A DNA stretch of 64,000 nucleotides from Obrimoposthia wandeli (lineage: Eukaryota): contig CDROCS010000186.1 in the NCBI GenBank assembly GCA_977020255.1, positions 62,001 through 126,000 of the forward strand, given 5' to 3'. The number at the start of each line of letters is the position of its first letter. The stretch's first letter is position 1. Positions 6,961 through 50,636 of this stretch are shown here, one piece after another. Both the position numbers and the translations under genes were made by a program. Under the pieces are notes generated by a model. The model did not search any database, was not told the DNA's origin, and worked only from the letters and a program-made list of their open reading frames with translations.

Positions 6961-8585
6961 TTCCAATATATTGAGTAGTATGTACTTTATAATTGATATT
7001 TGAGAGTTTCAATATAAACAATATCGTATGATTCACATGTCCTTATATATAGTATTCCCACACTAACATACACACATGAACATAGTATAAACAAAATCCA
7101 TACGAACATGTACTTACACACTCATGAATACCATTGAAGTGAAACAACCAATTAAAATCTTTGACCAATCAAATGAGGTTAGGTAGAATATAAACAGCTA
7201 AATATTTATTTCATTCATTATTTCTGATTACAATGCTAACAAACTTAATAATAAAGAAGGTAACTCCGAAGGAAACCCCAGATAAGAAGAAGAGATCAAT
7301 TGCTAATACAATTCCATTAAAAAATAAATGATGAGGCTAAGGATTTTATTAAACATTTATTTTGCGATATCATCAATGATATCATCAAATTGAAGAATCC
7401 ACAATTTCAAGATCCTTATCATTACTACGGATAGGATATGTATTTACTCAAAAATCCTTGCATGTACCATTTCTCAAATATTCTCAAATATTATATCATC
7501 AAATATATCAATTATGAATATATTAAATAATTAAATGAAATCATGCAACAATTCATAGTAATTCTATCTTGATTCGAGCCGGGAATCGTATTTTTGCGGA
7601 TTATTGAAAAAAGAAAAATAAACGTGATGGAAGTTTGAAACCAATATGAAAGATTACCAGAGAATGTATAATGTTATAAACTATTGATAAGTAATGATGA
7701 TGACCTGATGATGCAGGGTGAAATATCTGCGAAAGAAGGTATCATATGACTCGAATTTAATTAATTTATTTGACATCAGTTCTGAGTTAGTACCAACACT
7801 ATAGTACCTAAATGTCTATGTAGTCATTTTTCGTTAAAATGTTTTAAAATTACACAGCAAGTCTCGAAATCACGCATACTAACTCAAGGCAATAGGTCCC
7901 TGCAAAACCATTGTTGACGTAGTATGCATGATTACAAAACCTTTTTCAAATATCGCGATATTTCTTAAGTAGTTTAAGTAAATGATTTTAAGTGACTAAA
8001 GTCTCCTTTGGGAGCCCTTCATCTGAAGACTGGGCAGCACCTTTGGCAAAGAATATATATTTAGATTACTTTTGTTTATAGTACATCTTGAGAAAAATCA
8101 AATAATAAGTAAAATCAATAAATTATTTATTTATGATTACAAATCGGCGTCTCATGATGATAGTAGTATTGAATATCTCCCATAACTATTTAATGTATAT
8201 TAAATTTTTTAATATAAAACCTTACTTTGATGATATTGAAAAAGTTCTACTATTCTTAATTTGAAAAGTTCCGGAGCACAATATATTGAAAAATATCGTT
8301 CTGTATAAAGTTTGAAAATTTCTTCTTTAAGGTTTGTCCAACATATCCAACATATCCAAAGTACTTAAAGTCATAATGATGAAATGATTTTAAAACTAAA
8401 GTGTTTCGATTATATAAAAGCCTAACTTCAATATAATTGGTCAACTAATCAAATTAATCCTATATGATAAATAAAGTGATTAAACACAAAAGTTGTATTA
8501 TTATATACAAGCGAATGAATGAATGATAATATACATTAAATAATTAATAACAAAACAAAAAACTATATATCTTATTTAAAAACTA

Positions 8586-11500
8586 TTAAGTTAAATTAAA
8601 ATTACCATAAGCAAGGGTTTTATTCTTACTAACCCATCTCATTTTATCGTCAAAACATTTTAAAGCAACTTTAGAGCTAAATGTTGTATGATGCTGATGG
8701 TTAATCGATGCTATACGTTACTGGTTAACACTCATAATTTCTTCATTTTCATAACAGTCTTGGTGTCTTAAATTAGTTTGTTTTAAAGAAATACCCTTAG
8801 CCCTTAATTTATTTTGATGTTAATAACATTTTGGTTTTAAGAAAACCCACTCATTATAATCAGTACCCTTTCGTCTTTAAATTTTCCAATTACAGCTTTA
8901 AAGTTTTCTGAATACAAGGGATGTGTTTTTAGGATAATTACTCGTATCTAAATATTCGTCCTTAATCATTTCTTTGAGTAATTTATCTTTATTAATATTC
9001 ACACAGTCAAGGAAAAAAGAATCTGTGTCCATAGCTACAATTCAAATACTATAATTAAAAGTTTGCCTATACCGTTCAAGCTCAACATATTGTAATTGAT
9101 ACATTCGTAATTTATATAGATCAAGTACAGCTTGACCGATATAGGATGCCGATCTAAACATATTTCCTATTTCTGCATAAAAACTAAATTTAAATAATCA
9201 TTTATTTGAGTATGACGTTTAAACCAAGGACTCAAACTAATTTTTCAAACCGTTTATCGTTATTACATAATCTGATATCAAGCCGATTCTTAAGATTCTC
9301 AACCGTTTTACCGTAAACGGAATTATTTTTTTAATTTAAAAAACTATTATTCAAACCTATTAACACCAGTTGCATGCTTGTTTGAATTCAAATCTATATA
9401 TTGTTTGAAAACGGGTGCTTGTGTAAACCGAATAGCCCTCTGAATCTTTAAGATTTCAGCACCAAGAAAAACATAGAATTGTAGTAAACGGAAATGTATT
9501 ACATAATGTTCTTTATCATTATGTGTTAAAAGTAATTTAGGAGTTTTTGAGTTTGGTGGACACATCTTATGTGGTCCAATAGGTAAGTCATCAACTTTAT
9601 CATGTATACGATCCGGAATATGTAAATCTTCTTCAACAAGAAAACCCCATACGGTTTTACTTAAATCCCTTTCACTTCCAATTAAATTCAAAATTATCAT
9701 GCACCCATTTAAATTCCATATGTGGTAAAGGTTGACTTAAAGCCCATCCGTATAAGTTATTCACATCTATATAGAGAAGTGATGTACTATCATCGGACTT
9801 ACAATAATGTGTATTGACAAAAGTCATACTTCCTCTAATACCTGCTTCAAAAAGATTAAACATTTCTAGATCATGAAGCAATTATACTTTATGTTTTAAT
9901 GATTTTATTGCACTACACCAACTAAGACCGGGAATACTAAAGAAATTAAGAGCCTCAAGATTATCATCAGATCTAACTTTCTGTCTAAAAGCCTCAAATA
10001 CATCACAAAGTAAGTATACATCAAGACGCATATATTCCATCATATAGTCTTTTATTTAAGTGCAACCTATTTTTGTCCACATTGTATGAGCTAAATTATA
10101 TTTATCATCTGTAATGCTATTAGGAAATTTGCATTTTGGAGGCAATCTATCTTCATACAACTTAGATTCACTGGAAATATATTCATAAGGGAAAACGCCT
10201 TTACTAGATATAAAATCAGTACTAAAATATCTTGAGATTTACGGTGAACTTGGAAGATAACTAACCAATCTTTCAAGACTAGTTGTAAAAAGATATGAAT
10301 CTAAAATTTCAATGTTCCAGTTGATAATTCTATTTTGAGAGCCATGCATTTTTCACTAGATTTGGGTATGATTGAATAACCTTTCCCTTTGCAAATTTTA
10401 AAATATGATGAATATCATAACCCATTAAGTTGTGAAAAAGTACTGGTAACATAGTTCTTTTACCGAATCTATGAGATAACTTACATTTATTAAACGCTGC
10501 ACCCAAGAATAAACCTGAAATATGATCATGATCACGTACTAAATCTCTAGTGATTTAATAACAAAGGTAACATATGCGACTCTTTTGAAAAGCTACCTGA
10601 TTTTCATTTACATTATAAGTGGTGCATGCATATTATTTCTCCAAAAAGGTGCAACAATTTCATTAAGAATTTCCGTTAATTTATCAATAAAGTATGTAAC
10701 ACAATCTAAACCGAAATACGAAAAGTATTCTATTGTGTTAGTAACATTTTTTTTAAACAACATTCCAACTGCAATGGGAGTATGTATATTAGGCCGGGTC
10801 GAAATTTTATATTTGAATTACACATTATGCCTTGAGTTCCCTTTGGGTTCCTGAACAACATACTAAAATTACATTGCCATGCGACCCACCCTACCCATCG
10901 CATACGACCCCATCATTTTTGTTAAATCGTATATATTGTATATGTTTGACAGTCACATCAGGTTCTAAAATACTTTCAAAATCAGCGTAAACTACAAAAG
11001 GAGGTTGAACTGACTTTGACCAATCTGTGAATTCCCAATATTTATTATCCGGCTTAGTGAATAAAGTTAGTGTATCAGTATTAAAATTACAATGGGTTCT
11101 ATGTTTATCATAAGCTGCCACAGTTCGAAAACCAAAAAGACATTTCTGACACCAGTAAAGGCGTAAACCATAGCTATGACAATTAAATAATACCACAATA
11201 ATGATAAGTGTTAAGGTCTTCTAACGAAAGTAAATTAACAATTTGATTACATTCCCGTAGTTTTGTTCGGTAAATTATACTAACTGCAGGACTTTTCAAT
11301 ACAATTATTTAACTTGTCTGTTCTAATAACAATAAAATCATCATCGAAAACTGCAGTCTTACAACTAATAGGCCATGTTTTAAATTAGTTTTCTATGTTT
11401 ACAAATTGAGCTTCAATACCAAATTGGATTTTGCAAGGCCCAAATGCATTAATTTTTTCATATCATTATTAATAACCAGTTTTAGCATATTTTGGTTAGA

Positions 11501-11665
11501 TGTAGTATCAAAAATAAGATTACCTTGAAGTGCGCCACCTATTTGATTATCATTTGTTATTGCTTCAAGGCCTACAGTTGCTACAAATTCATTATATAAT
11601 TTATAAAAAAAAATCATTATATAATTCATAAAAAAGTTGTTTTTCATGTGTATAAAGTAAATCAT
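8586..11665 (-). pseudogene. Protein-primed DNA polymerase B of the Maverick (copy A), fragmented
   Basis: Motifs: PFVVYADFES (ExoI), LNFFSIPGLSW, GIRGSMTF, LYIDVNNLYGWALSQ (motif A), VAMDTDSFF (motif C) and C-terminal FDDKMRWVSKNKTLAYG ending at the stop 8586-8588. ORF-track pieces are 10891-11196, 9672-9881 and 9347-9700. The N-terminal boundary is uncertain. Confidence 0.9.
10790..10936. mobile_element. 147-bp insertion with 7-bp target-site duplication inside pPolB A
   Basis: TGTATAT flanks it at 10783-10789 and 10937-10943. Removing the insert plus one copy restores the frame DVTVKHIHTPIAVG, matching HQIHLPIAAG in pPolB B. No TIR seen. Confidence 0.7.
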
Positions 11666-11974
11666 TAAAATCTAGAGATTCATTTCAATACTTATCTAAT
11701 TCATCATCATCATCATTTAAAAATGTAGCGAAATCAAAATTAGGTGAAAATGTTGGACTATCAACTATTTGGAAATCAAAACTATCAACTGGTATTATAT
11801 TATTAATTGTTTCTAGTTTTATAACTTCATTACTTCTTGATGATGGTGATGATTTACGTTTATAATTTGATTTCTTGGTATTAAAATAAGAATAAAAATC
11901 TAAATATTCTATGTTTGTGAACAATATATCACACGATGGACATATGGATTCGTTTTTAAACTTTTAATATTTTT

Positions 11975-12456
11975 TCATAACCTCATGACAATTACTAGTA
12001 TAATAGTTATAAAGTTTACATGGTGGGAAACCATTTTAGGAAAAATACTAATTAAAGCGCCATCAAACAGCACATCAGCTAACCTATCATCAAGGTTGAA
12101 TGATGTACCTAATCGATTAAAATATAATTTTCGGGTTCCATATATTGAGTAAATTTTCTCAGCTAAGTCTTTTCTCAGGGCATCTTGTGAAATTTTAATA
12201 ACTTTAAAACAATTAAGTAAACTTGTATTAATATTTATAAAACGATCATTAAAACTAGAATTAACACCAAACATTGTAGGAAAAATGGTGACAAGTGCTG
12301 CGTCATATAAGACATCGCTAACCTTGTCACAAAAATTAAAGAACTTTCCAATTTGTTTAAAATATAATTTGCATGAACCAAACGCAATATAAATTTTTCA
12401 GCAAGGTCTCTAATTAGTTTATCAGGTTCAATTTCTATTTGTTTAATGGAATGCAA
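11975..12456 (-). pseudogene. Maverick accessory ORF(s) with an internally duplicated domain, unknown function
   Basis: Two overlapping ORFs contain alignable segments: RDLAEKFILRLVHANYILNKLESSL..TRLA and KDLAEKIYSIYGTRKLYFNRLGTSF..DRLA. Confidence 0.4.
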
Positions 12457-13601: not shown

Positions 13602-13961
13602 TTATAAAATAAGTCGTTTAAATTCGTAAAATTTATTAAGAAACTTGATGATACAACCATAAAAGACATAATGATCACAATTAGTAGTTAATAGGTTTTG
13701 CATACGAATTTTATTTTTGAATACATGGCGTTTCACTTGAGTTTCCACATGTCTGATGAGTGCTGACGGATAATAAATTCCTAGAGGATCGAATACGTGT
13801 ACACTATCACGTCTCACGAATAGCGAAATACAGTGTTCACCAGGTAAATTACTTGTATGAGTATTTACAGCATATCCGCCAGGCTTTAGAGCCGGTATTT
13901 TATCCATGGGAAACACTCCTTTGAATTTCTGTTCCAATAATTCAATTCTGACAGCATACAA
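13602..13961 (-). CDS. Adenain-like (C5) maturation cysteine protease of the Maverick, 5'-truncated
   Basis: YAVNTHTSNLPGEHC (His), FDPLG (Asp) and RMQNLLTTNCDHY (Gln/Cys) follow the adenovirus/Polinton protease motif order. Confidence 0.85.
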   Translation of the reverse strand: MYAVRIELLEQKFKGVFPMDKIPALKPGGYAVNTHTSNLPGEHCISLFVRRDSVHVFDPLGIYYPSALIRHVETQVKRHVFKNKIRMQNLLTTNCDHYVFYGCIIKFLNKFYEFKRLIL

Positions 13962-14259
13962 TCAATACGAGTATTATTCAAGTGAATTTGTAGATCTTTA
14001 AAGTGTATGGAAAAAGAAATTTGATAGGTACGAATTTATCGGCTTCCACTATGTCAATATAACTGTTTGTTCCATTATGTTTTAAAACTTTAATTTTCAA
14101 ATATAATAGAGAATCATTCAAATCTAAATATTCTGTTTCACTCCATTGAATAATAAACTCAATTGTATTATTATTACTACCGGTAATATTATTAACAAGG
14201 TAAATATTCTCAAAACATCCATTTTCTATAGCAATTTCAGGTAGTGGACGAATAAACAA
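13962..14259 (-). pseudogene. N-terminal ~100 aa of the double-jelly-roll major capsid protein; remainder deleted
   Basis: TIEFII..ETEYLDLNDSLLYLKIKV, then after a frameshift FHTLFKDLQIHLN, matches the start of Maverick major capsid proteins. It abuts the protease directly. Confidence 0.75.
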
Positions 14260-14289
14260 ACATAATGTAGATTTTGCACAAGCAATTTC

Positions 14290-14690
14290 TTACTCAAATA
14301 TGGTTCTTATTTTTCTACGTTTGTTTATACTACCACTACCTTTTTGTACTTCTTTCATTTCAATCTGCGATTGAGATAGTGCTGGTCGTTTTCGACTTTT
14401 CTTTATTGCAGTCATTAGTTGAGTAGCAGCTTTTGTTGCTTCAAGCATCAACTCCGGTACTTCGCTAATTGTATTAGATTTTAGTTGATTCAAAATTGGT
14501 TTATCGTTCATTACTACATTTGTAAGTGTTTTTGCATCAATTTGTCCTAAACGTGATAGTATAGAAAACGCAATTTGCCCCTAAATTTTCATCCAACCTG
14601 AACCATATTGTTTTCCAACAAAGTAAGGTAGTTCACCACCCGTTTGGGTTGTACTATACACATCAAAAAGATACATTATTAACGATTAAC
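14290..14690 (-). pseudogene. Putative Maverick core-like basic protein
   Basis: QTGGELPYFVGKQYGSGW, then a basic tail (KKSRKRP..QKGSGSINKRRKIRTIFE). QxGxG sites of this kind are typical of small Maverick proteins between the capsid genes. Confidence 0.55.
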
Positions 14691-14695
14691 ATTGT

Positions 14696-15768
14696 TTAAT
14701 TTTGTTTATACATAACTTTTCGAAAATGTAGTGTTAAACTAGTTTTTGCGTTATGAGCAAAGTTTATCGGTATTCCACTATCATTACGAATATTTACTTC
14801 AATATTAGAAATATATATTGATATTATAGGAAGATACATTGGTTTAATGATTATAATATTTACGGTTTTTTTAACCAAATTGATTTTAAATTTAGAATTT
14901 ATACCGCACCAACATTTATAGACTATAAAATTAGTATACAGGTACATGTTATTAAACTCACATATTAATTGAGGTATACTTTTACCGTCACCTGTAAATT
15001 ATGTTTTATTAAGACCCAGTACAAATGCCATACGAGTGTTAAATATTATACTTGAAATATTATATTTTAACTTGATTTTGATGAATTTATCTTTTTCAAT
15101 ATAAAACATGCTAAAAATATGACTACATTTAGATATACGTTTTTAACTAATGGAGTCAAATCTGTACTATTGAAATCGTTGTCAAATACAATTTTTGATT
15201 TGATATTTTTATTTTCAATGTGATAATATTCAAATTTTGTTGATACACATTGAGGATGTATGGTCATTTGAGCAGTTAAAATACCGTTATCATCAGATGC
15301 AAAATAACTTCCAGATAATTTTATATAGAATTTCTGTTTATTTACAGATTTTATAACAAGTACATTTTTTATCTACACCTTCACCATATGTACCAAACGC
15401 ACAATAAAAATGAGCAATGTGTTTTGATGATTTTAATTATACTTTTGAAATTTTCTTTACAATACGTTTAACAGGTGCTAACTTTTCACCATAAATTTTC
15501 GATTATGTGATTATTTCCTCATCTTTAAATTCAACACCTACTGACACAGTATCGGTTTTCATAGTGCTATTCGTTTCATTATAATTAATTTCGCCATCCT
15601 ATAAGTAAATTCTGTCAATGCAACTTCCCATACACCTTGAAGTTCTATCGGATTTTCCCAATCAACAATAAAATTTGATGCGATATTTTTAGGTTGAGTG
15701 TTTGGACAACTGTTAGATGGTAATACAATATGGAAATGTTTTACTCTATCTGGTTCGCTTTTATCCAT
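14696..15768 (-). pseudogene. Minor capsid (penton-like) protein, frameshifted
   Basis: N-terminal FHIVLPSNS..NIASNFIVDWENPIELQGVWEVALTEFTY and C-terminal IEVNIRNDSGIPINF..TSLTLHFR. Confidence 0.8.
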
Positions 15769-15774
15769 GTTGGT

Positions 15775-16730
15775 GTTTTATATCCATGCCACTACGTAAT
15801 ATTGTTTATTCTTACCTCGACCTTTAGATTTAATGAATTCTTGTATCCTATATACTTTTGGTTTATCAATAACTTGTAATTCTTGCTCATAAAACTTTCC
15901 CTCTATTGGACTTTTATCCTCATCTATGATGTTATACATAATGGGGTTTGCACGTAAATTGATTTTTGCTATTTCAAATACTTCATCACTCCAATTATTA
16001 TCGAAATATTTAATAAAAGGTGTTGTACTTAGACGTGATATGCGAACAAAATCTTCAACTTTGTATTTAAGTTTCTTTATTATTTTTTATTACGAGAAAA
16101 CCAATCATCAAATGAAATATCTATAGGTTTCTTACCACTTAAACCGCGATGTGGTGGGTGATTATATGAAATTAACAGTTTAACCTTTACCCATTTCTTT
16201 GATCCAATTACAACAAATTGTTTATTTAATTTATCCCTTAATGTTCTATTAAATCGTTCCACCAAGGCCGCTTTAAAGTGTGAAAACACAGAGTAATGAT
16301 TTACTCCTAATTTATCAAAAGTTGCTTTAACATGTTTGTTATAAAACTATTTTCCAGCATCTGTTTGTACATTATCGGGTACAACATCAATCATATTTTT
16401 GATGGCAGCCTCTATATCTTTTCTGGATTTTGATTTTACCAGTTTAGCACGCCCAAATCTAGTAAATACATCAATACATGTTAAAATATATTTGTAACCG
16501 CTAATGTATCGTGTCCATCAAATCCATTTATCGTAACTTATTAGGGCCACTAGTCTTGTACGATCGTGTTGGAAACCTTTTTCGAATTGGTTTGATGAGA
16601 CTGTACTGTACGCTAGTTGATTGCTCAACCATGGTTGAATTTTCTTTTGACTTGACTTTGTGTTTGATGATAATAATCTAAGGCTGCTGTACCCAACTCG
16701 GTCTTCGGGATCGTACCATCTCGTACCATT
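15775..16730 (-). pseudogene. Retroviral-like (rve) integrase with C-terminal chromodomain
   Basis: YILTCIDVFTRF, VQTDAG, KAALVERFNRTLRDKL, YNHPPHR, WSDEVFEI and KSKGRGKNKQYYVVAW in shifting frames. Confidence 0.85.
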
Positions 16731-16769
16731 ACAACAATTTATTTTAAATCAAAATTAGGTAAGTTGTAG

Positions 16770-17040: not shown

Positions 17041-17609
17041 TTGAAAGTAAGGTAAAACGTTTTAATTATTTTTTAAACTGAAAGTACATATATTGTTTAC
17101 AGTCTTATTGAGAAAATGGATTAAAACCTCCTTCTTGTTTTACTTTTTTATCAATTACAATCCAATTCTTTGTCTTTTAATAAACTTATTCTTATTTTTC
17201 TTCGTTTTAACATGTTTCCTTTTAGTACTGGAGTTTAGTATTCTTTTTTTAAATGCGAATATAATTTTGCCTGATATACAGCATTATTTTTAAGTATCAT
17301 AATAACAATAATAAGAATAAGAATATTGTTTATAAGCATTTTATTAATATATACACCATACAAGAATTAAAAATTGATACAGAAAAAGTTACATACATCA
17401 TATTTGAACGAATAATCTGAATGAAACTTTCAAAATGCAATTTCCATTTGATATCTCTGTAGACATGTGAGCGAACTATTTCTTTAAGATGATTACGACT
17501 ATCTTCATTAAAACTTGAAAAGTATTGAACTCTATTTATTGTTCCTTTTATAATTTCATCAACTAATTTATCGTATCTCTCCATTCTTGTATAAATCACC
17601 AAATTTCAA

Positions 17610-18400
17610 TTGTTTATACCATGACATTTTACATTTCTTACTCTCCTTTCAATTATATATCGACATACTGGACATGAATGTAACCTTCTGGAACATGAAA
17701 TACATGTATTTATATGTCCGCATGGTATAAATATGATTATTACTTCAATATGATTATTTAAACATACTACACATTCAGGTTCTTTTAATATCTATGAAAA
17801 TATATTTATATATTGTTTTTCAGGGTTTATTTCTAAATAAGATAAATCATTTCAAATATCCATCAACATATCGAATTTTTCTGTAGTTATAGGATATTCA
17901 ATTATACAATCTGTTTCGATTTTCTCAATAACATTAGCATCATTACAGAGTCCCAAACGTTTTGGATAACATATATGAGGTAATTTTACATTAATATCTG
18001 ATACAAATACTTTACAATCAATGTTGATGTATCAAAATCGATTTTCTTATTACTAGTTTCAATTATTGGTACATTTTAAACATTTAACTTTAAAATAAAT
18101 GGACATGTAGGAAAAGATTTCATATGTTGCTTCATTGGGTTAACATACCATTCCCATTCGGATAATGCACCTTGACAGTATATACATTTTACTTTATCGG
18201 TTGAATCATCATCATGTTTATAAAATCCGGCTCTAGCTAAATCATATGTAGATTGTTTCCCTTTAAAATTTATAAATAACGATTTCAATCTTTCACTTTC
18301 ACGTCTATATTTCACATGTAAAACTTTCATTTTAGAATAATCTACTTTTCGTCTAACTAAAACATCCTTAACAGTTTTATAATGAAGTATATAATCAACA
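17610..18400 (-). pseudogene. Inhibitor-of-apoptosis protein (single BIR + C-terminal RING), frameshifted
   Basis: BIR at 18076-18330 with LARAGFY and exact C-x2-C-x16-H-x6-C spacing. RING at ~17660-17773: CVVC..FIPCGHINTCISC..CPVCR. Confidence 0.85.
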
Positions 18401-18439
18401 AGTATTTTTTAAAAATAAAAAACATATATTTGTTCATAA

Positions 18440-18606
18440 GAAACTTTCAAGAAAAAATACAATAGACTCGACTTGACAATGATAATCAAAATCTTTAATA
18501 CCATGAATAATCACTTTTCCACTAGCAAACATAGATGATTAAACTTTAAAATTCTGAGTGCTGGAAACAATTCTGGTTCAAATATACAATTTCTTCCCAT
18601 TTTCAT
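18440..18606 (-). pseudogene. TATA-binding-protein (TBP)-like fragment
   Basis: MKMGRNCIFEPELFPALRILKFNHLC / FASGKVIIHGIKD across one frameshift, compared with TBP repeat-2 YEPELFPGL..LLIFVSGKVVLTGAK. Confidence 0.65.
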
Positions 18607-19264
18607 AGATATTTTATACTACTATAGTTATTTAAAATTAATCTAACATTTTTATTTGGTATTTATTTTGGTATTCGTTAGTGTTTCTATAATTTAATAT
18701 ATTTAAACACATTTATAAATTTATCACATAAATATTTCTTTCGATAACTTTTTATATACTGAAAACTAGCAGATAATGAAATTGTTGGGGTTTCTATACG
18801 AAACTTGGTACAGATCCTCTGAAATGCGGAGGGCCCCAACGTGAGTTCGAATAGAAGCAGGTCTTAAAGTTGGTCGTGGCCTACTTAGTGTTATGGTTGC
18901 CTATCTCTTGTACTATCTGAAGGTATTTGATTTGATGTCTCTTATTCTGAAGGGTGCAAAAACAACTTGTTCTAATGTAGGAAATTGTTTATTGGTAATT
19001 CACGAAACTAAACACAACAATACGTTTATGTACGTATTTCTAAAAAGTATGGTAAAATTCCTAAGACTTCTGTAAGTCTCTACAACAAGTGGGGATGAAC
19101 CACGTATCGATTTTACGTTCGGGGTGATCGAGATTTTAGAGTTATTCTTCTTCCTAGGTTGGTTAATTTATAACGCAACTCTCTTAAATTTCTTCGACTT
19201 AACTTAGAATGTGTGGATAAAGTTTCTTGAATCGGCAACTCTATTTGTTGTGTATTCGACCACG

Positions 19265-19703
19265 AATTGTCCACTGTGGACAATGATTCTCCTAAAAACC
19301 TAATTGTCAACGATGACAATGAAAACTTGTTCCGAATTGTCAACTAGGACAATGAGTGTTTGTTCCGAATTGTCAACTAGGGACAATGAGTGAACCGAAT
19401 TGTCAACTAGGGACAATGAGTGTTTGTTCCGAATTGTCAACTAGGGACAATGAGTGGACCGAATTGTCAGCTAGGGACAATGAATCTTATGGGCAAAAAA
19501 CTCGAACAACTCCTAATTGTCAACTGGGGACAATGAATATGATGGACAATCCTAATTGTCAACTAGGGACAATGATTTTGTTAAAGACAAGGCAAATCCT
19601 AATTGTCAGCTAGGGACAATGAATATGTTTAAAATATGTTAAACAATCCTAATTGCCAACAAGGGGCAATGAATTTATCCTAATTGCCAACTAGGGACAA
19701 TGA
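19265..19703. repeat. Array of 12 palindromic repeats (AATTGTCAACTAGGGACAATGA) with variable 8-31 bp spacers
   Basis: Copies start at about 19265, 19302, 19335, 19368, 19398, 19432, 19462, 19515, 19554, 19601, 19651 and 19682. Each has ATTGTC..GACAAT arms. Confidence 0.9.
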
Positions 19704-19738
19704 TTCTTTTAGCGAGTTTCTCACCTAGGCTGCGACAA

Positions 19739-20095
19739 TTGGACACGAAAGGATAGATTTGTAATGTTCTCAAAGTGGACTCAAATGATAACTGTAATCT
19801 TCTCAAATTTGGACACGAATGATAACTTTTATATTCTCAAATTTGTCTCAAATGATAACTTGTAATATGCTTAATTTGGACTCAAATGATAATTTGTAAT
19901 GTTCTCAAAGTGGACTCAATTGATAACTGTAATCTTCTCAAATTTGGACACGAATGATAACTTTTATATTCTCAAATTTGTCTCAAATGATAACTTGTAA
20001 TATGCTTAATTTGGACTCAAATGATAATTTGTAATGTTCTCAAAGTGGACTCAATTGATAACTGTAATCTTCTCAAATTTGGACACGAATGATAG
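19739..20095. repeat. 135-bp higher-order tandem repeat (four ~33-bp subunits), ~2.5 copies
   Basis: GTAATGTTCTCAAAGTGGACTC recurs at 19761, 19896 and 20031. The subunits share TCAAATGATAAC. Confidence 0.9.
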
Positions 20096-21359
20096 ACTTC
20101 TGATCTAAATTAATTCAATTTATGGAAACTAACAAATTTCCACTCACCAATTCTCCGATTCCTGGGATATTGATTTCCCTTCGCTTCGCTGTGTTCGTTC
20201 TGTTTTTTGCTGTCTGGTTTCTTCAATAGATTATGACTTATATAGTCAGCGATTGATTGACGTTCGGTCCAATATTGTTTGGCGGCAGCTGAATGCTAGA
20301 ACAATCGATTTTAAATTAATTGCACGTAAATGTGCTTACCTTTTTCTGCTGACGTTTTTCTTTCTGCTGACGTTAGCAGATTCTAAATTCCCGTGTTTTT
20401 GTTGCACTTTTGGGTTAATTAATCTAACCTTATATATCCCACACTATACACGACCTTCGTGGTCCTCCTAATTTTTATCCTAACTTCCACTAATTTTAAT
20501 TTTGAATCTAAAATTAATATTTAATTTAATTTTCAACCTTGCTTTCAAGGATTTTTATTTTAGTATTTAATCGACTAATTATTTTAATTTCCTAATTCCT
20601 AACCCTAACAAAATTACTTTTATATGTAGAATTCATTTCATAATTTTTATACAAATTGCGAACTCCTAATTTTTATGACACCTAAAGTACGTTTCCTTGT
20701 AAGTATAAAATTATTAAACACAGTTATGTGCATGTGTGTAGTCTCACGTCCCAATAGTGAAGTGAACTTAGATGATTCAGTTCAATCTTGTCGTCTAAAT
20801 TAGATAGTTTGGTACTATCATTTGAGTCGTTGTCCAAAGTATCAAATTATCTTAACTTGTCTCAGTTTCATCTTTTTCTGGAGTCTCATAAATGTGTCGA
20901 GTTCTACTCTACTCTTATATTTCTTAGTCGGCTAATTGTGCAATTCCACGTTGGTTTGAGTCAGAGATTCTACGATTATTCTGCAATTTTATTAAGTGTA
21001 TGTTCTTCTACAATTATTCTGTCTACTCTCCTTGACACCATTTATTATAAATACCTCAGGTAACTCTTTTAATTGCATCAGTGGTCACCTGAGATTAACT
21101 TTTCATTTATTCCCTCTCGGTTTTTTTTAATTTTATTCTATTTTTAATTTATTTCATTTGCTTCTTTGATTATGTCTACCAATATAAGTCATTCTAATTT
21201 AATATTTTAATTCAAATTTTCCCTTTTAGTACCTCAACATTATAAATGTATCTTTGAAGTTTGTTTACAAATATCAATAGAAACATTATATATATTTTTA
21301 TAAATTTTAGTTTTAGCATATATTTTATATGCAATGTATAATTGAATATTTTTATTTAG

Positions 21360-24300: not shown

Positions 24301-27300
24301 TATTTATTTTTTTAGTAAAAAGGGGGCTGCTAATGATTTTATAGTATTTTAAGAAATATTTTATCAAAATTCTCTCAGCAATTCAGGCTGATAAAGTTCT
24401 TTCAGTATATTGATTTTCAATACTAAAATTTTGTTACAAGGGGCAATCTTTCTTTCATCTCTTGTTACGCTTGGGTTACCAAATTACTGCTTAATAATTT
24501 CAGTCTAATCTTTGGCTAGAAGGCCCTAACAAATTTATTTTATTTTTGGAGTTGTCTGGAGAGTTATTGTTAAACTTTAAATATTTTAGGGTTGATTTTG
24601 TCAATAATATTGAGTATATCAGTAGTATTTCATAAATTTATATATTTGTCTGCTTATACAATTTTGGATTGTACGAAACTCTACACTCACATCGTCTGTT
24701 CAATTGCAGAACTCGTGGGTAAACGTGCTACAGCTCATTAGTGAGCACCTCAACAACATCCAGTCCGGCAACGAAATTGGCGCCATCGTGGGAAATTTCT
24801 GTGACGCTGAGACAATGACTGCCATGAAGGACTTCCTCAACGGCTTCGACAGTGAACTGCTCTGTACCGAGGAGAAATTTCCAGATATTGGATCTGGGTA
24901 TGTCGGTATTTCCCACATTTTAATTATTCAAATATTCCATTCAAGACCTTGGTCTCATGGCGTACTTTCCCATACACCGGCACAAAATGATGAAATACAG
25001 TCAATAATTTTATCCTTTTACATCGATTCCAATCGATGTAAATTTCTTTCATAAAGTTATCAATAACATTTCAAAACAGCTTATCTGGTTGTATTTGTTG
25101 GCACAGGAAGCAGAATAACATATTTAACTTCAGAAATGTTTAGGGAATGTTTTCTTGTAAAATTTGTATGTAGCATGATGCAAATTCAAAAATACCGTCA
25201 TTTATCCCTAAATGTTCCTCATGTACCACACTTTGTGAAACATTAGTCTAGTGCAGGTGTCGGGAATATGTGGCTCTTGGTTTGAGAATATGCGGCTCTT
25301 CGTAAAAAGACAAAGGAATTTGGCCATGGAAAATATTTAAATTTTTTATATTAACTAATGTTGTTTTTTGGTTCTACATATAATTGTGAACAATTTTTCT
25401 CGTCTATGAATTTTGTTAAAAATAAATACAGAAGCAGACTAACAGACGAAAGTTTAAAAGCTGTAGTGCAGTTAAAAACTACCAAATATAATCAAAATTT
25501 TAAAAAATTTTAAAAAATTATCTGAAAAGACGCAGGTGCAAAAATTACACTAACTTTTCTGTGAAATATGAATTAATAAAATAACAATATATGAATTTAA
25601 TTAATATTGTGTTTGTTTATTTATTAAGAGAATTTTCTTTATAGTACTTTTCCCATTTAATTTTTATTGCGATTTCGCATTTGTGGCTATATGTTTTTTT
25701 TAATATGGCTCTTAGTTCCAAAAAGGTTCCCGACCCCTGGTATCGTGGTTGAATATCGATTGTTAGCTTCAATCGATTCTATTTTCTCCAGGCTAGTGTA
25801 GGAAATGGCGAGACATTTAGCTTGTGTTACTGCAGGACAGACATTCGATCAAACTACATCATGAACTCCAAGATCGAGGGCATTGAGGAGGCTGACCTGA
25901 TGTTACTGGTTGGCACCAACCCTCGGTTCGATGCCTCAATCGTCAACACCCGCATCCGCAAGGCCTGGGTTCACAATGAGCTTGATGTCGCTCTCATTGG
26001 TAGCGAGGTCGATCTCACCTACGAATACGAGGTTTGACCTCAAACTACAGATTCTGCCTTCATACTTCTAAAATTCTACGTCAGTTAAACTATACGTCCT
26101 ATATTTTTAACATATAAAATCTATCTAATTTCGATTAAATATTCAGCAAACATTAAAGGGGTTTAAAATAACAAAATGTCTAGAGTGTAGATAAATTTTA
26201 AAATTTTATAGTACAGTTTAAAATAATTTTGATTATAAACAATTTTAATTTCATGAGGAATTAGTTTAAAAGATAGATTTTCAAACTTTGGCCTGGGGAG
26301 GATGTTTGTCAGTCTGCGAATGCATTCGGGAAATATTCAGTTAAATTCTAGGGTTTTCGTGGAGTGTGAACTGAGAAATATATATTTCGTGTTTTAAAAA
26401 GATTGGAAAACTTTGATTTACAAATGTTTTAAATATTTAGAATATATTTTATCATCTGTGATATCGGTACAATAAAATAACTAACTAAAAGCGAAATCTT
26501 CAAAAAACAACAATACTAATGTTTAAATGTAAAAATTAAAAACTGAACATGTTGATTCAAAATAACTATTATTTTATATTCCTATTAATTCACGAAATAC
26601 AGTTAATTAGAAATTAATACACTCAGTCAAGCTGAATTCCATAACCTATAATAAAAAGAAATTGACGATAGACACACACTAATAAAAACTTACCAAATGA
26701 TTAAATGATTACCATAATGAAAAATAAATATATGGACGCATATATATACTAACATGCATGGGTAGAAAAAAGGTGTGATTTTAATATATAGGTCAAAGAA
26801 ACAAAATGAATACCATAACGAAAAATGAATATCAACATAGAAAACGACCAAAATGCAGTTTTTATGTGTTATCTGACGTTTTGGACGAATCTAATACCAC
26901 AGAAAGGTAATTTAAGTAATATATTTTAAAATTTTAGTCATAAATAGAGCAGAAAATGAATCAAGAGGAACGCATCTCGAGAAAAAAAATCAAATTGCTC
27001 AATTTAATGCTTGTAGGTCATCTTTAGAGGATAAACAAATACTATTTGATGTATATATAAATGGGGAGGATTATTTTATTTTTGCACGACAACAATGAAT
27101 AAATAAACGTAGCGCGAGATTTAGCGTATTCAGATTTAGATAAACACATAAGATTACAAGAGGTCCGATAGGCTGTTCAAAACCTAAAATCATGGAGTCA
27201 GCAGGAAACTTGCTAATGATTGAATTAGATAATACTCCGTTTATATCCCTTCGAGATATGGTGGACTTTCTGAAGGCTCAGACAATCCGGTGTACGCCAA

Positions 27301-30300
27301 TGATTGCCCCATTTCCTGTATGAAAAAAAGATAGGTTCAAACTATACAGGGACACTGAAAGAAAATGATCGGACATGTTATACTTGAAGAAACAACTTAA
27401 GATCGAGTAAAAAACATGGCTAAGATTGTGGAAAAGGAGCTCAAGCTTGAAGATTACAAAGATCTGCAAACTTACTACAAGCATATAAGAAAGATTTTTG
27501 AAAAACATCTAATAGAAGAAGATGTGCTTGCCGACTAATTAATAAATTACTCACTTTTTTTACTTTTAATTTGATTTGACTTGACTATATTCATAAAATA
27601 AATCCAAATTATTCTAATAATTATATATGTAATCGTATGTATTTCTTTATAGTCATCTTTTTTCTCTTAGTTCTACAGTCTATGTATGCATCCAACATTT
27701 GTTTCGTGAATTATTATAAAATTGTGACAGTTAATTTGAATTAGCCTGTAAATATTTTATAAAGTTCTAAACATTGTTTAAATTCAATAAGCGATTTCAG
27801 TGTGAAGTTATGAAGCTACTGTTATTGTGTAAGTGTTTATTACAGTATCTCGGAGACAAGGCAGAAACTATCGGCCAGATCGCAAACGGCAAGCACCCTT
27901 TTTGTGAGGTATGTACTTGACAATGCAATATTTTTAAGTGACCATAAATAAAAACATCTTTGTTCATTAGGAAATGCAACCTTATACATATTCTAGACAT
28001 ATGCATGAGTGTTTAGACAATGTATTATTGATGAGAAATAATATAATTAGGGTAGAGTATTTTCAGGCAGGCATACGTGTATATAGAGTTGCCTTATTGT
28101 TAGTCAACATTTTAGATTAAAACGACTAAATCAATTTTGAATATATGTTAAGGACCTGACAGTTTTTTTTCATGCATTACGTTTAAGAAAAATAAAACTG
28201 CTTCATTTAATTATAATTAATAATCATTTATTACTCTTACTCAGGGGTTCCGTAGACAAAATCAGCGGTTCTGAGAGCTGAAATTTAATTTTAAAAATTA
28301 ATTTACAAAAATTGCATTGACGTTACTCCCTAAGCATATGCCTACTATAACTACTTAATAAATACTTCATTAGTTAAACTTTACATTTTTTCTTCAATTT
28401 TCAATATAAATAATTTTTATTCTTCACTTTATGGTTTTAAGTTTTATTTAAATAGGTAGGGCTTCCAATATTTTTTTCGATATCAAAGAGATCGAGGCCA
28501 CAAATGTTTGGGAGCCGCTGCTCTAACTTAACTATATGTATAATTATAATGCCACATACAGTCTGACATTGTTAATAAATTAATTTGGAGTGTTAAAGTA
28601 TTCAGTAGTTAAGATCTGCTCTTACATGCAGAAACTGAAGGCAGCCAAGAAACCCATGATCATAGTGGGGTCTGAGTGTCTTGAACGGAAGGATGGTGGT
28701 ACCATTCTCGGTCATCTGCTGGTGGCCAGTGAACACCTCAAGTCTGGGGACTGGCCAGTCTTCAATGTGCTCCACAAGGTGACATCACTCATCCCTTTAT
28801 TTCGTTTTGCTACGTATATAATTGGCATTAGAAGCGTAGTTGTATCTAGGAAAGCAAATGATTAAAAATACTGGGTGTGTAACGTCCTCAACTTATTATC
28901 AATATTTAAATCGGTACGATGTATGGATTTCTTCTTAAAAGTCGCACTATTTAATACAAATTACTCGTCGGCCATTTTAGGTAAGCAGAACGGGCGATGT
29001 GTAGTGAAACAATAATAAATATCGCGTTGATCCGTACTGATATCTGCATCAGGTCTTCCAGGTGAGCAATGTAGTTGGTTCATCCCATATCACAACTTAT
29101 GCTTGTAGTGGTCAGTACAGTCCCATTCGATTTTCTTCACTGTACATTATTTCCCAAATTATATTCATGACTATATCTCTTATCTCAAAGTCGATATGTT
29201 TTTCTTTTCCAAACCATGTTCAGCCTTTCTCATTGATCTTTAGGTTAATAATAACCGTCTAATTGACATTCTTCATTGCATGTCATAGTCTTCCAGACAA
29301 TATTGATAGCCTTCTTGATGCAGAACGCTAGTCAAGTAGCTGCCCTCGATCTGGGATACAAGCCTGGACCTCAAGCAGTGCTGGCCGCCAAGCCCAAAGT
29401 TATATTCCTCCTGGGCACGGATCGAGGTACTCTGAAGCGCACCGACCTACCCAAGGACTGCTTCGTTATTTACATTGGTCAGTTGTGCATTTCACTTCAC
29501 CAAACTAAATATTTTTTAAATAAGACCAATGTGCGATAAATTGCTTCTCCATAATTTTATTAATTATTATTTTAATAAGTATTATGGATCTTATATGATA
29601 TTTTTCACTACCACCCACGATAAGCATAGTTAATGACTAAGGTTCCCTGACATGGTACATGCATGTTACAGGTCACCATGGTGACAATGGGGTGCTGTTG
29701 GCGGATGTGGTGCTGCCTGGTGCATCATACACGGAGAAGCAAGGCACCTATGCTAATACAGAGGGTCGCAGTCAAGAGACACAGATGGTGGTGAGCTCTC
29801 CCGGAGACGCCCGGGACGACTGGAAAATCATTAGGGCACTCTCTGAGATGTGTGAGGGCCGCGCGCTCCCATACGACACGGTGATGGAGTTGCGTGACCG
29901 CATCTGGGAGTTGGCGCCGCACCTGACCCAGTACGGTACATGTGAGACCTCTGCTCTCCTCGCGACAGAGGCAGCACAGCTGGCTAAAGTAAGGCACCCA
30001 TTTCATGTGATGCTATCTGAAACCCTTTCTCTAGTGTTGTCCCATGTTATCAGATCAGCTTCTTTATATTTTTTTGGAAAATCCCTGAATTTTGTGATGT
30101 TTGTATTCATTTCTTGCACCTGAAAAGTCAATTTCTGCATCTGCTCAAAAATGTCAACCAAATAGGCAAGCTGCATGCTCTATTCTTCATCATCCAATCA
30201 CACAAACAATCTATCGTACCGTGAACTCCAATAAATCATTTTATCTCACCTCTAAGCTTAAATAGTCGCTTAATTACATTTCCTCTTAATTACATTTATG

Positions 30301-32438
30301 TTAGAAAAAGGCAAATGCATATTATTAAATTCTAAATGAAGGGTGGTTTGCTGAGAGCTCCTTTGACAAAATTTCAATTTGCATTTTTTGATTCACATCC
30401 TTCGCTATTAGAACTGAAATTGATTTTGACACCAATGCCTGATGATGAATTATACAAATATTTTCACTTTTAATGCAGGATTTCTTACACAAACCTGAAT
30501 CCCATATTTTGTACCCAGCACTATAGATTAAATCCAATAAAAGTCTTTCTATTTCGCAGAAAATTTTTTATTCCAAAATATCCTTAGTACTTATTCCAAG
30601 AGGAAAGCAAAATAGAAACTCATATTTAAATGAACCTATGTGAACATGCATTGATAACACAATAGTCGATTCATCAAGAGGGATTGTAAATCCGCTAAAT
30701 GATACTAACTGGTTTTTATGTATAGCTTGATTCTGAATACTGGGATCCCAATTTGTCCTGTAACTATGAAATACCCTCTCTGGTTGAGAATATATTCTAG
30801 TATTTTAGTGATGTTTTATTTCTGATTTTAGTTAATCGCATAAAACTTTACTTTTAAAAAAATACTTTAAATTAGTACTTGTTTTATACGTTTTATTAAA
30901 ACACAAGTAGAAGTAGAATACATTTATATTACTTACAAGGAAACGTACTTTAGGTGTTATAAAAATTAGGAGTTCGGAATTTGTATAAAAATTATGAAAT
31001 AAATTCTACTTATAAAAGTAATTTCATTATCTGCTAGTTTACAGTATATAAAAAGTTATCGAATGAAATAATTATGTGATAAATTTATAAATGTGTTTAA
31101 ATATATTAAATAATAGAAACACTAACGCGATTATATGAATAAATACCAAATAAAAATTAATTACCTTAAAATATTAAATTGTTATTGGTTTAAAATAAAA
31201 CCTTACCAAATTCCTATTGGATTTTAAAATTCAAAACATTATTTCAACTAGTGCGCTTAAAATTTTGGATTTAAATTATTTAAAATTAAACCAAATCATA
31301 AAATTTATTTTATAAAAATTTAATACATATTACTTTTTTATTATAAATAAATAGCAGCTAAAACTACATTTTTAATATTGCAATATATTATGTTTATCAT
31401 ATACTAAAATTTCGCTGAGTTCATTTTATGACCGTGCGAAACGTTTCCTTGTTAGATATATTACAGAAATTGTTTCCAATATTAAAAAATTATAAAGTTT
31501 GTTATTTTCCACACATGGTTTGAGAAGTAAATTCATAAAGAAACAACCTTTCAATAATGAATTTTTGTGAAACAACAAAACGTCTCTAAATTTATCCCCG
31601 TCCTGTGTGCAATGTTGGGAGTCAAAATTAGCCGTGAACAATTTCAAGAATATGCAAAGCTTGTATTTCAAGTTGATGTTCGTTAAACAAACATTGGTCA
31701 ATTATGTGTGAAACAATATTTTGTACACAAATTTTTATTAGTTTCATTTAGTTCTTTTGTATCAGAATTCCCCATATTGAAAATAGATGATTGGTAAATG
31801 TGACGGGGCACTACAAAATGTAATGTGGGTATCCTTAAATATTTTGAGTTATCAACATGTTCAGAAAACGCATTTTATACGCAAAAAGGATTAATTCGGT
31901 CTCAGCTGTCATATTCACACCACTAACAACAGTATTTGATATGTCCTTTCTAGATTCCTAGAAGAAGCCCTTTGTTTTCAACACATTTTCCAACATTATT
32001 ATGAAAACCAATAAAATTCGCAATGAACAACAGGTACCAAATGTCAGCTTTATGAAGTAGAGTAACTTTCAAACATAGTTTCGATGAATCAATAAACAGT
32101 CTCCTCCTTTAAGAAAAAAGTAAAATGATTTTTAGAGATAAAATTATAATTATGCAATTCTTTTACAATTTTATCGCAATCAGTTTTCATAACTTATTTT
32201 TATTCATGTTGTGTTGTGTTATTTAGTGGAAAACATGTCTGATAGAATTCTTATGCAGGCAGACAAGGGCACAAAGCTGGACAGATCGGTTCCCATCTCA
32301 TCTAGTCTGAGACAGCTAGAGGACTTCTATATGACGGACAGCGTGAGCCGGGCTAGTCAGACGATGGCAAAGTGCCGGAAAGCGGTTGCCGATAGCTACG
32401 CAAAGGAAGATAGTCCGGCACAAAAAGTGGCTCTGTGA
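21360..32438 (+). CDS. NDUFS1: NADH:ubiquinone oxidoreductase 75 kDa subunit, 3' eight exons (5' exons not found in window)
   Basis: Exons 21360-21473, 24710-24897, 25836-26031, 27846-27908, 28632-28778, 29324-29477, 29672-29988 and 32259-32438. All junctions are GT-AG with consistent phases. Translation runs [67 protein letters not shown]. Confidence 0.95.
21716..22260 (-). mobile_element. hAT/Buster (ZBED5/SCAND3-like) transposon 3' remnant
   Basis: [39 protein letters not shown] is a Buster transposase C-terminus. A TIR-like CAGTGCTTTTCAAAC lies at ~21716. Confidence 0.7.
23600..24180 (-). mobile_element. Gypsy LTR retrotransposon 3' remnant: integrase GPY/F tail, PPT and start of 3' LTR
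   Basis: ORF 23889-24170 contains [19 protein letters not shown]. The polypurine tract AAAGAAGAAAAGGGGAAAAG is followed immediately by TGTGGTG at 23768 (minus strand). The LTR end was not located. Confidence 0.7.
25254..25739. mobile_element. hAT-type MITE in an NDUFS1 intron
   Basis: TIRs CAGGTGTCGGGAA / TTCCCGACCCCTG. Degenerate 8-bp TSD GTCTAGTG / GTATCGTG. Confidence 0.75.
27000..27540 (+). mobile_element. Degenerate Tc1/IS630-like transposase remnant
   Basis: [38 protein letters not shown] resembles the HTH region, and [21 protein letters not shown] resembles the C-terminus. The catalytic core is missing. Confidence 0.4.
28242..28520. mobile_element. hAT-type MITE in an NDUFS1 intron
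   Basis: Imperfect TIRs CAGGGGTTCC / GGAGCCGCTG. 8-bp TSD CTCTTACT / CTCTAACT. Confidence 0.65.
30330..31701 (-). mobile_element. Scattered hAT/Buster transposase remnants
   Basis: FTIPLDEST (~30680), [11 protein letters not shown] (~30450) and [17 protein letters not shown] (~31570) resemble the Buster LDESTD, HCxIHxEAL and LLxHTEVRWLSRG motifs. Confidence 0.55.
31850..32090 (-). mobile_element. Small DNA-transposase remnant (possibly Chapaev-like)
   Basis: [19 protein letters not shown] resembles the LLLGLQxGYTKYCCFLCEWDSR transposase motif. The superfamily assignment is from memory. Confidence 0.35.
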
Positions 32439-35977: not shown

Positions 35978-37868
35978 TGTTAGGATTAGGTTTTTAATAA
36001 AATTAAAAATAAATAATTGTTTTATAGTAAAATGAAAATCCTTGAAAGCAAGGTTGAGAATTAAATAAATTTTAATTTTAAAATCAAGTTAAATTATTAG
36101 GACTAAAATAGGAATAAATATTAAAAGGACCACGAAGGTCGTGTATAATGCGTTATATATAAGGTTAAATTAACTAGTAAAAGTGCAAAAAATAATAAAT
36201 AGCAACGTCAGCACAAAATTAAAGAAAATTAATTAAGAAGGAAATATGAACATAGCAATCAGCCAACGTCAAATTTGCCACGTAAGCACTTTTTAGTGTC
36301 AATCAACTTACCTTTCTTAGCCAGGTGCAAATTCTTCCAGATCCAGGTGCAAGAGACTATAAAAGTCTACTTACCCAACTCAAGAGTGACAGAACAGTAA
36401 TTTCCAGAGAGTCGCTAAATCCAATAAAGGTACTCAGCAGTAGACCTTCCCCCGAATCAATCACGAGAATCGAGACAACGACACCGAGAAAACAGCTGGT
36501 AAGCGCTCCTAAAAAACTGAGCTTATATTGATTTTAGAATTTCATATAGATTCTCGGAATTGCCGATCCTCGCATTAAGCAGTTAATATCGAGCCAGAAA
36601 AATAAAGGACGTGTCAACCACAAGAAGATTATCACTCTCAGCATTTGCAGCATTATCCCGAACTACGGAAAAGCAGAGACGGTTTTGCAGCCAGAAGACA
36701 GGAAAGGATTCGTGCAGAAACAGCCATCGGATATCGAGTTCTCGAGATCACCGTTCCAGAACAGCGAACTTACTGAGGGAAACCCCGGAACACTTGGACG
36801 TTATCTTTCCGGAATTGTCTACGGATTGGAAGGTGAGCCAAGGCGTGTCGCGATAAGTTTGGGATTGCTAAAAATATATTGGTTTTACATAAATTAAAAT
36901 AAATTTCTGGGATTAATAAAAGAAGTTTGAATTGCACTATTTTATATAAAGTGATTAATAAAAGAAGTTTAAATTGCACTAATTGAGATAAAGTGATTAA
37001 TAAAAGAAGTTTAAATTGCACTATTTTATATAAAGTGATTAATAAAAGAAGTTTAAATTGCACGATTTGATATAAAGTGATTAATAAAAGAAGTTTGAAT
37101 TGCACTATTTTATATAAAGTGATTAATAAAAGAAGTTTAAATTGCACTATTTGAGATAAAGTGATTAATAAAAGAAGTTTGAATTGCACTATTTGATATA
37201 AAGTGATTAATAAAAGAAGTTTAAATTGCACTATTTTATATAAAGTGATTAATAAAAGAAGTTTAAATTGCACTATTTTATATAAAGTGATTAATAAAAG
37301 AAGTTTGAATTGCACTATTTGATATAAAGTGATTAATAAAAGAAGTTTAAATTGCACTATTTTATATAAAGTGATTAATAAAAGAAGTTTGAATTGCACT
37401 ATTTTATATAAAGTGATTAATAAAAGAAGTTTGAATTGCACTATTTTATATAAAGTGATTAATAAAAGAAGGTTTACTAAATTACCTTGTCACAGCTGAG
37501 AGTACAGACTCTAGCGACCAACCCACCCTAAAGTAATATCGATACGTGGTTCATCCCCACTGGTGTAGAGACTTACAGAAGTCTTAGGAATTTTTACTAT
37601 ACTTTTTAGAAGATACGTACGTAAACGTATTGTTGTGTTTTAGTCTAGTGTGTTACCAATAAACGATTTCCTACATTAGAAAACGTTGTTTTAAACCCTT
37701 CAGATTAAGAGACATAAAAAACAAACACTTTCAGATAAGTAATTGAGACAGGCAACCATAACATTAAGTAGGCCACGACCAACTTTAAGACCTGCTTCTA
37801 TCAGAACTCACGTTGGGGCCCTCCGCACACAAGAGGATCTATACAAGTCTCGTATAGAAACCCCAACA
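35978..37868 (+). mobile_element. Long solo LTR (1891 bp), copy X2, same family as 18783-20610
   Basis: TGTTAGG...CCCCAACA with perfect TSD TAAG (35974-35977 and 37869-37872). It shares AGGACCACGAAGGTCGTGT, TATATAAGG (36156-36164) and a ~330-bp 3' block (37536-37868) with X1. AATAAA at 37658. Confidence 0.8.
36911..37470. repeat. 42-bp tandem repeat, ~13 copies, inside solo LTR X2
   Basis: Unit GATTAATAAAAGAAGTTTAAATTGCACTATTTTATATAAAGT. It explains the repetitive ORF 36770-37441. Confidence 0.95.
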
Positions 37869-50349: not shown

Positions 50350-50636
50350 AATCCGTCGACATTCTCTAATAACTTATGTCTGCTAATGTTAAAAATATTG
50401 TTATTTATCCCCAAAAAACACTGTTGATCAAAGTAGGGGTTACGGATGAAAAATATAAATTCAAGGATATATTTTAATTAAATTTATGGGTTAGAAAGGG
50501 TGGTGGTACCACTTAGGCGCCACCATTTCCCAAAAATTTATTTAATAGAAGAGGTGGTGATCCTTTGATCAAATGGGCGTCACCAGTTCCCGACGGAAAA
50601 GCAAAAAATGTAAATTAATGTACTATTCTCACTTAC

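Follow-up and report, generated by a model that had tools for sequence, protein, structure and literature searches.

The window, a stretch of 64,000 nucleotides of Obrimoposthia wandeli DNA, carries what remains of a TBP-fold gene, truncated at its 5′ end and frameshifted, within a decayed Maverick, and uninterrupted relatives of this gene in Polinton/Maverick elements encode a protein predicted by modelling to be a reduced TBP of about 145 aa with a two-lobe saddle and a ten-strand sheet. The window copy is cut and dead and unable to make the protein. We regard it as probable that the intact protein is the element's late-gene switch on host Pol II, acting via a box, YATAAAC(A), that lies before the virion genes.

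The window copy and its decayed element

The remnant (18434..18619, minus strand), recognised by comparison with family copies, holds the C-terminal lobe only, its 5′ part being missing. In keeping with the original prediction the TBP motifs are split by a frameshift on the viral strand, with one minus-strand frame (18511-18618) carrying FEPELFPAL, a second (18434-18538) carrying FASGKVIIHGIK and the break lying near 18530. The predicted neighbourhood was also found, the motifs lying directly 5′ of, and on the same strand as, an IAP-like gene made up of a frame with a BIR domain (18076..18408, minus strand; PF00653, E 3e-14) and a RING finger frame that is likely the IAP C-terminus (17606..17791, minus strand; PF13920, E 7e-12). 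Neither of the two pieces of 34-35 aa alone gave a match to Pfam, and for this reason the window alone is no proof of TBP identity, the proof coming from the repeat family. A DNA search of the genome (1.35 Gb, judged from the IAP and the short introns of host genes to be that of an animal) with the window gene gave 3541 candidates, and among the best 40, which were scored, the 39 other copies were 92-94% identical, all of them aligning only up to window position 18619 or slightly short of it. At 18620..19012 one or more unrelated interspersed repeats, parts of which recur inverted at 31020-31127 and 37639-37844, stand in place of the gene's 5′ part. Since other copies run on upstream into the first TBP lobe and a divergent gene beyond, the gene is non-terminal in the family and the window copy is cut, such that its placement at the end of a Maverick was right for the window copy, where family similarity stops at 18619, and wrong for the family. 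Just past the cut are tandem arrays (19298-19729 and 19739-20099) of 30-34 nt units with a recurring AATTGTCAACTAGGGACAATGA core.

The remaining pieces of the element on the minus strand (ATPase start, integrase, penton-, capsid- and protease-like genes and polymerase) extend down to about 9.3 kb. The packaging ATPase is reduced to its first ten codons (17271..17300), family similarity breaking at 17271, with an ATAAACA box before its start at 17327..17333. A retroviral-type integrase lies in pieces at 15778..16748, its rve score being below the cut-off and three of its four pieces being 82-91% identical to two family copies, and inside its frame a second box (15803..15809) precedes a penton-like (minor capsid) gene that is itself in pieces (14696..15777). 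A third box (14703..14709) precedes the frame 14290-14580, which we take to be a pX-like gene, while a fourth (14322..14328), inside the preceding frame, precedes the start of a hexon-like major capsid gene (13978..14289). All four boxes were found by motif scan on the minus strand, the window element keeping one before each of ATPase, penton, pX and capsid; the penton- and capsid-like genes were identified by position and likeness to related elements, neither having a Pfam match. The minus-strand stretch 13602..13961 is presumably an adenain-like protease remnant, a label that we assign from motifs and position. A protein-primed DNA polymerase B follows in pieces (9347..12397, minus strand, span approximate) with 38-76% identity to polymerase frames of related copies, and 7783..8137 is a probable terminal inverted repeat remnant, matching in inverted orientation sequence that in other copies lies upstream of the TBP gene.

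Elsewhere in the window, pieces of another protein-primed DNA polymerase B, this one carrying an endonuclease VII-like domain, lie at 52112-55952 (minus strand), and the polymerase frames of related copies also match the PF03175-positive frames within it at 52112-54606. Pao/BEL retrotransposon pieces occupy 45170-50373 (minus strand), where 49993-50373 is a ubiquitin frame. Exons of a host gene from the molybdopterin oxidoreductase family, which we take to be NDUFS1, lie at 24626-25054 and 29641-30123 (plus strand).

The reduced TBP family and its elements

Both motif positions occur in one frame in at least 9 of 19 fetched copies, and all five family frames tested passed Pfam TBP (PF00352; E 9e-10 to 9e-7, 29-39 bits against a curated cut-off of 22.9 bits). 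One family has the gene uninterrupted at 144 codons and its uninterrupted copy scores 63.9 bits, such that the TBP identity proposed from the motifs is borne out by profile in both. A search of the genome with Pfam TBP gave 19,768 candidates, the best 150 of which were scored; the top ten rows were host TBP-type genes and the other 15 of the 25 fetched loci were element copies from several families. Used as a query, the uninterrupted copy gave 91 candidates, from which 80 homologues were retrieved. Several TBP-type genes belong to the host itself, two of them in inverted tandem and one of an uninterrupted type in two copies, as do several Brf-like genes of the TFIIB family (L021-L030, L147-L154). 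The Polinton load of the genome is very large: capsid and ATPase each yield about 30,000 candidate matches, and TBP about 20,000.

Polinton core genes lie within 10-20 kb of the gene in 8/8 own-genome copies. In the metagenome, among the best 80 of 106 relatives, a core gene was present in 39 loci, and in 30 of the 37 loci of at least 3 kb. Stretches picked in reverse, by ATPase or capsid, carry the TBP gene in 17/20 cases; the other three look shortened or rearranged, and no TBP-less family of the same class was found in the own genome. The linked elements have pPolB, an rve integrase and a packaging ATPase (PF04665, E 2e-6), with capsid and protease labelled in related elements by gene order and likeness, having neither a Pfam match nor a fold. 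Elements with the gene have capsids only 27-31% alike, and in one family the TBP gene is head to head with the polymerase. Uninterrupted homologues are thus linked to Maverick core genes in both the own genome and the metagenome, and Pfam, fold and linkage agree that an integrating virus-like element carries its own TBP-fold gene, as had been supposed. The elements share pPolB, rve integrase, packaging ATPase, protease, major and minor capsid and IAP cargo with the Polintons/Mavericks (adintoviruses) described in two studies (PMC8502044, PMC10748475).

None of 38 ORFs, of which 37 come from elements, matched TFIIB (PF00382) in a search that a very divergent TFIIB could escape, and across the whole genome Pfam TFIIB gave 29 candidates versus 19,768 for TBP. 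The viral contigs searched held no mini-TBP and one full-size giant-virus TBP; they also held no relatives of the capsid or ATPase and so offer no TBP-less comparison of the same class. The usual neighbour of the TBP gene in one clade (L075:1788-2135, L047:400-795, L065:472-1173 and relatives) has no Pfam match and folds like a T7 gp2.5/Enc34-type SSB (Z 8.3; ASFV CP312R 6.9), and on account of this fold it was dropped as a candidate TFIIB or donor of the missing helices. Cargo in related elements includes a ubiquitin-conjugating enzyme domain and KilA-N proteins (L094:225-719, L119:7136-7993, L139:6804-7889).

An AlphaFold model built from a 66-sequence alignment has a pLDDT of 95.2, and all 143 modelled residues align to TBP (Z 13.4, rmsd 2.4-2.5), the next unrelated fold reaching Z 6.5. 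Foldseek also matches the model to TBP, with giant-virus TBPs among the BFVD matches. The uninterrupted relative therefore folds in prediction as a two-lobe TBP, and the reading of the motifs as the signature of the second TBP repeat was correct as to TBP and too narrow as to the protein, which is a shrunken two-lobe TBP and not a second repeat alone. It shares with cellular TBP and its paralogues (PF00352; PDB 7o4i, 5fur, 1mp9) the two-lobe saddle, the C-lobe EPELF loop with both TFIIB glutamates and three of the four intercalating Phe, differing in the loss of the first Phe, in fixed changes on the DNA face and in being encoded by a mobile element. Cellular TBP is about 180 aa, whereas the Polinton protein at about 145 aa is modelled without N-lobe helices 1 and 2; its C-lobe is complete and its N-lobe strands are present, with no helix in residues 1-80 and the same segment deleted in the alignment. 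Thus, of the features of canonical eukaryotic TBP, the two helices per lobe, the helix-2 basic patch and the full set of four Phe are absent while the TFIIB glutamates are present. In other TBPs four Phe intercalate (PMC12529657), two C-lobe glutamates contact TFIIB and the basic patch for TFIIA, TAF1, Brf and Mot1 is mostly on N-lobe helix 2 (PMC7221094).

Across the 66 sequences, which are 41-60% identical, F38, F97, F113, E95, S68, N111 and M46 are invariant and R44 is kept at 90% or more (numbering from the second codon). E93 is kept in 65/66 and with E95 makes up both glutamates of the EPE loop. Compared with host TBP, three of the four intercalating Phe are invariant and the first is replaced, by Lys in 46/66, while S68, N111, R44 and M46 are fixed changes on DNA-contacting strands; the roles of these four positions and their mapping to yeast positions are in part our assumption. 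A subgroup of 167-173 aa keeps the helices and lacks the basic patch and the first Phe. An unrooted tree of intron-free copies and cellular-type proteins (82 rows) separates the 76 proteins of element type from the 6 full-length TBPs (100/99). Because the tree drew warnings of long branches, is unrooted and lacks archaeal and most giant-virus TBPs, we claim from it neither a donor nor an order of reduction. Outside the mini-TBP clade, a full-length (172 aa) divergent TBP lies beside an integrase (L146 and P0078), possibly a second TBP capture by such elements.

Short inserts interrupt the gene at one site, the Gly codon after the second Phe. Among 96 own-genome copies, 88 had both gene parts, 73 with an insert of at least 20 nt and 13 without. 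With automatic placement the insert starts with GT in 63/73, ends with AG in 65/73 and does both in 55/73, while with family-anchored placement GT and AG are found together in 9/15, 21/23 and 18/20, the family B ends being counted from automatic-placement rows. Four own-genome families have four unrelated insert sequences, mostly of 35-41 nt, one of which is an expanding ATT microsatellite reaching 236 nt; a fifth unrelated insert occupies the same site in one metagenome contig, 55 of 64 metagenome contigs having none (the five inserts are from L002-L020, L031-L045, L155-L214 and L111). A host TBP intron is 47 nt. Judged by their sequences the inserts are likely spliceosomal introns, which would fit nuclear transcription by host Pol II, and introns have been reported in Polinton-like elements (PMC11957031).

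That the gene is a captured host TBP fragment, functionless and passively amplified with the element, is a reading that would suit the window copy and the many other broken genomic copies. It is largely refuted, and we give it hardly any weight, by the residues held invariant across 66 divergent sequences, the separation of the clade from cellular TBP, the presence of the gene in elements with such dissimilar capsids and the splice-type ends kept around unrelated inserts.

The YATAAAC(A) box and its candidate readers

YATAAAC(A) was present in 69 of 77 regions before the starts of ATPase, small ORF, penton, pX, capsid and protease, about 7 being expected from shuffles and the regions, dereplicated at 70%, still being related by descent. 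It also preceded 12/17 integrase starts, compared with only 10/62 TBP, SSB and polymerase starts (5/15 for SSB and 5/42 for TBP), a difference from the virion genes (Fisher p 3e-19) whose independence is overstated by relatedness of the regions. The box is missing before some virion genes, being found at only 4/18 pX-like starts in stretches picked by ATPase or capsid. An ATAAAC-type 6-mer was top in an unbiased scan, on the sense strand about 35 nt before the ATG (mostly -31 to -47), often inside the preceding coding frame and with T or C preceding it in 62/68. The box spans elements whose capsids are only 27-31% alike, and its C is near-fixed (62 versus 13 for the other three bases). Across the whole window ATAAACA is not enriched (41 versus 35 expected) and is so only before virion genes. 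The promoter of the TBP gene itself has a canonical TATA in 23/42 (11.7 expected) and CCAAT in 13/42. The original suggestion that such a factor would direct Pol II to AT-rich viral promoters therefore needs narrowing, the likely target being a specific non-canonical box before virion genes and not AT-rich DNA in general; the redirection itself is something we infer. The C of the box is, we assume, the seventh TATA position, on the side read by the N-lobe, and it is in the N-lobe that a Phe has gone and R44 and M46 have appeared.

In the mechanism we favour, early transcription of the TBP gene by host Pol II likely starts from its ordinary TATA and CCAAT promoter, and the transcript is likely spliced in some families. 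The protein would then use its rewired DNA face to bind YATAAAC(A) about 35 nt ahead of the starts of ATPase, capsid, protease and integrase, with the kept C-lobe glutamates likely recruiting host TFIIB and Pol II, host factors being proposed because neither a TFIIB nor an RNA polymerase was detected in the element. Having lost its N-lobe helices, the protein would escape control by TFIIA, TAF1 and Mot1, while the missing intercalating Phe could weaken DNA bending. As a counterpoint, the prevailing view of other viral TBPs is that they do without host TFIIB (PMC7221094, PMC12529657).

The same box might be read by host TBP/TFIID or a host TBP paralogue, with the mini-TBP a decoy or repressor that binds TFIIB or TATA DNA and damps host transcription or the element's early genes. 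Host TBP does bind a TATA variant with C at the box position, through a Hoogsteen pair (PDB 1QN3), the host has TBP-like genes to spare for such a role, the kept glutamates are what a TFIIB sponge needs and the head-to-head arrangement with the polymerase in one family would be consistent with it. We nevertheless consider this unlikely, as C is near-fixed in the box yet the TBP gene's own promoter uses canonical TATA, and the DNA face, once altered, has stayed invariant. Another Polinton class of this genome, rarer at 196 candidates and marked by a PF21738 capsid and a PLA2-integrase, also speaks against a decoy in that it lacks gene and box together: ten copies had no TBP, apart from one nested insert of the first class, and the box was found in 2/52 regions versus 4.2 expected. 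This control is one distant capsid class of 10 copies from one or two families, such that the co-occurrence of TBP and box rests on two classes and not on independent losses.

Less probable still is a role for the protein in replication or packaging, in which it would bind viral DNA, for instance at the terminal repeats and together with the SSB encoded next door in one clade, leaving the box to another factor such as a Forkhead protein. The Forkhead consensus is RTAAAYA, which ATAAACA fits. GTAAACA, however, occurs 0 times against 62 for ATAAACA in the same regions, the box is strand-specific and at TATA distance, and a replication or packaging protein would have no need of TFIIB-contact glutamates.

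Comparison with other viral TBPs and implications

Herpesviruses are known to have TBP mimics that recognise late boxes (PMC12529657), and giant viruses to have paired TBP and TFIIB (PMC7221094). Like the Polinton protein, the beta/gammaherpesvirus vTBP (KSHV ORF24) mimics TBP, has a DNA face that is more polar and is matched to a non-canonical late box served by host Pol II, but ORF24 is large and multidomain, acts in a six-protein complex, has four Phe, lacks the TFIIB glutamates and reads TATTWAA (PMC12529657). Where the herpesvirus late complex has a Pol II-binding domain, five partner activators and a TATT box, the Polinton protein is a single domain of about 145 aa paired with YATAAAC; by analogy, it may work like a herpesvirus vTBP without being a member of that group. 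Giant-virus TBP-like proteins share the viral TBP fold and have also lost the eukaryotic N-lobe regulatory signature, but in giant viruses the glutamates vary and a TFIIB of viral origin is almost always encoded alongside (PMC7221094), whereas in the Polinton elements no TFIIB was detected and the glutamates are near-invariant.

A 'TBP' label has been given in MELD viruses with adintovirus-like PolB, where it appears as an abbreviation in the legend of Fig. 5 in the section on non-animal datasets (Starrett et al., 2021; PMC8502044). This is likewise a TBP-like gene in a midsize Polinton-type virus, known by label alone, and may or may not be of the same family. The available text of that paper gives no structure, distribution, promoter or mechanism for its 'TBP', and the one supplement searched was empty in this respect. 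In the literature on TBP with Polintons, only this legend and its preprint were found, the figures and preprint supplements being places that may show more; the main text of PMC10748475 contains none of 'TBP', 'TATA' and 'promoter', and the searched text of PMC8502044 does not contain 'promoter'.

As to what times and drives the virion genes of Polintons/Mavericks, no promoter was found described in the papers searched, and a small TBP of the element's own with a defined box reduces the question to one protein and one short DNA. The answer bears on whether Polintons qualify as true viruses whose cycle has early and late phases. If a TBP folds in the absence of its N-lobe helices and with an altered DNA face, it would reveal which parts of TBP can be dispensed with, and for annotation the approximately 20,000 candidate TBP-like matches in this genome distort TBP gene counts. 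We put at about even the chance that one orthogonal TBP of 145 residues, with a dedicated box (YATAAAC), drives an early-late programme throughout an entire class of animal Polintons, the protein connecting to host TFIIB and Pol II and having shed the surface that host regulators grip. If true, no DNA virus would have a smaller late-transcription system, and the arrangement would be evidence for a timed viral cycle in these Mavericks as well as a natural altered-specificity TBP-promoter pair.
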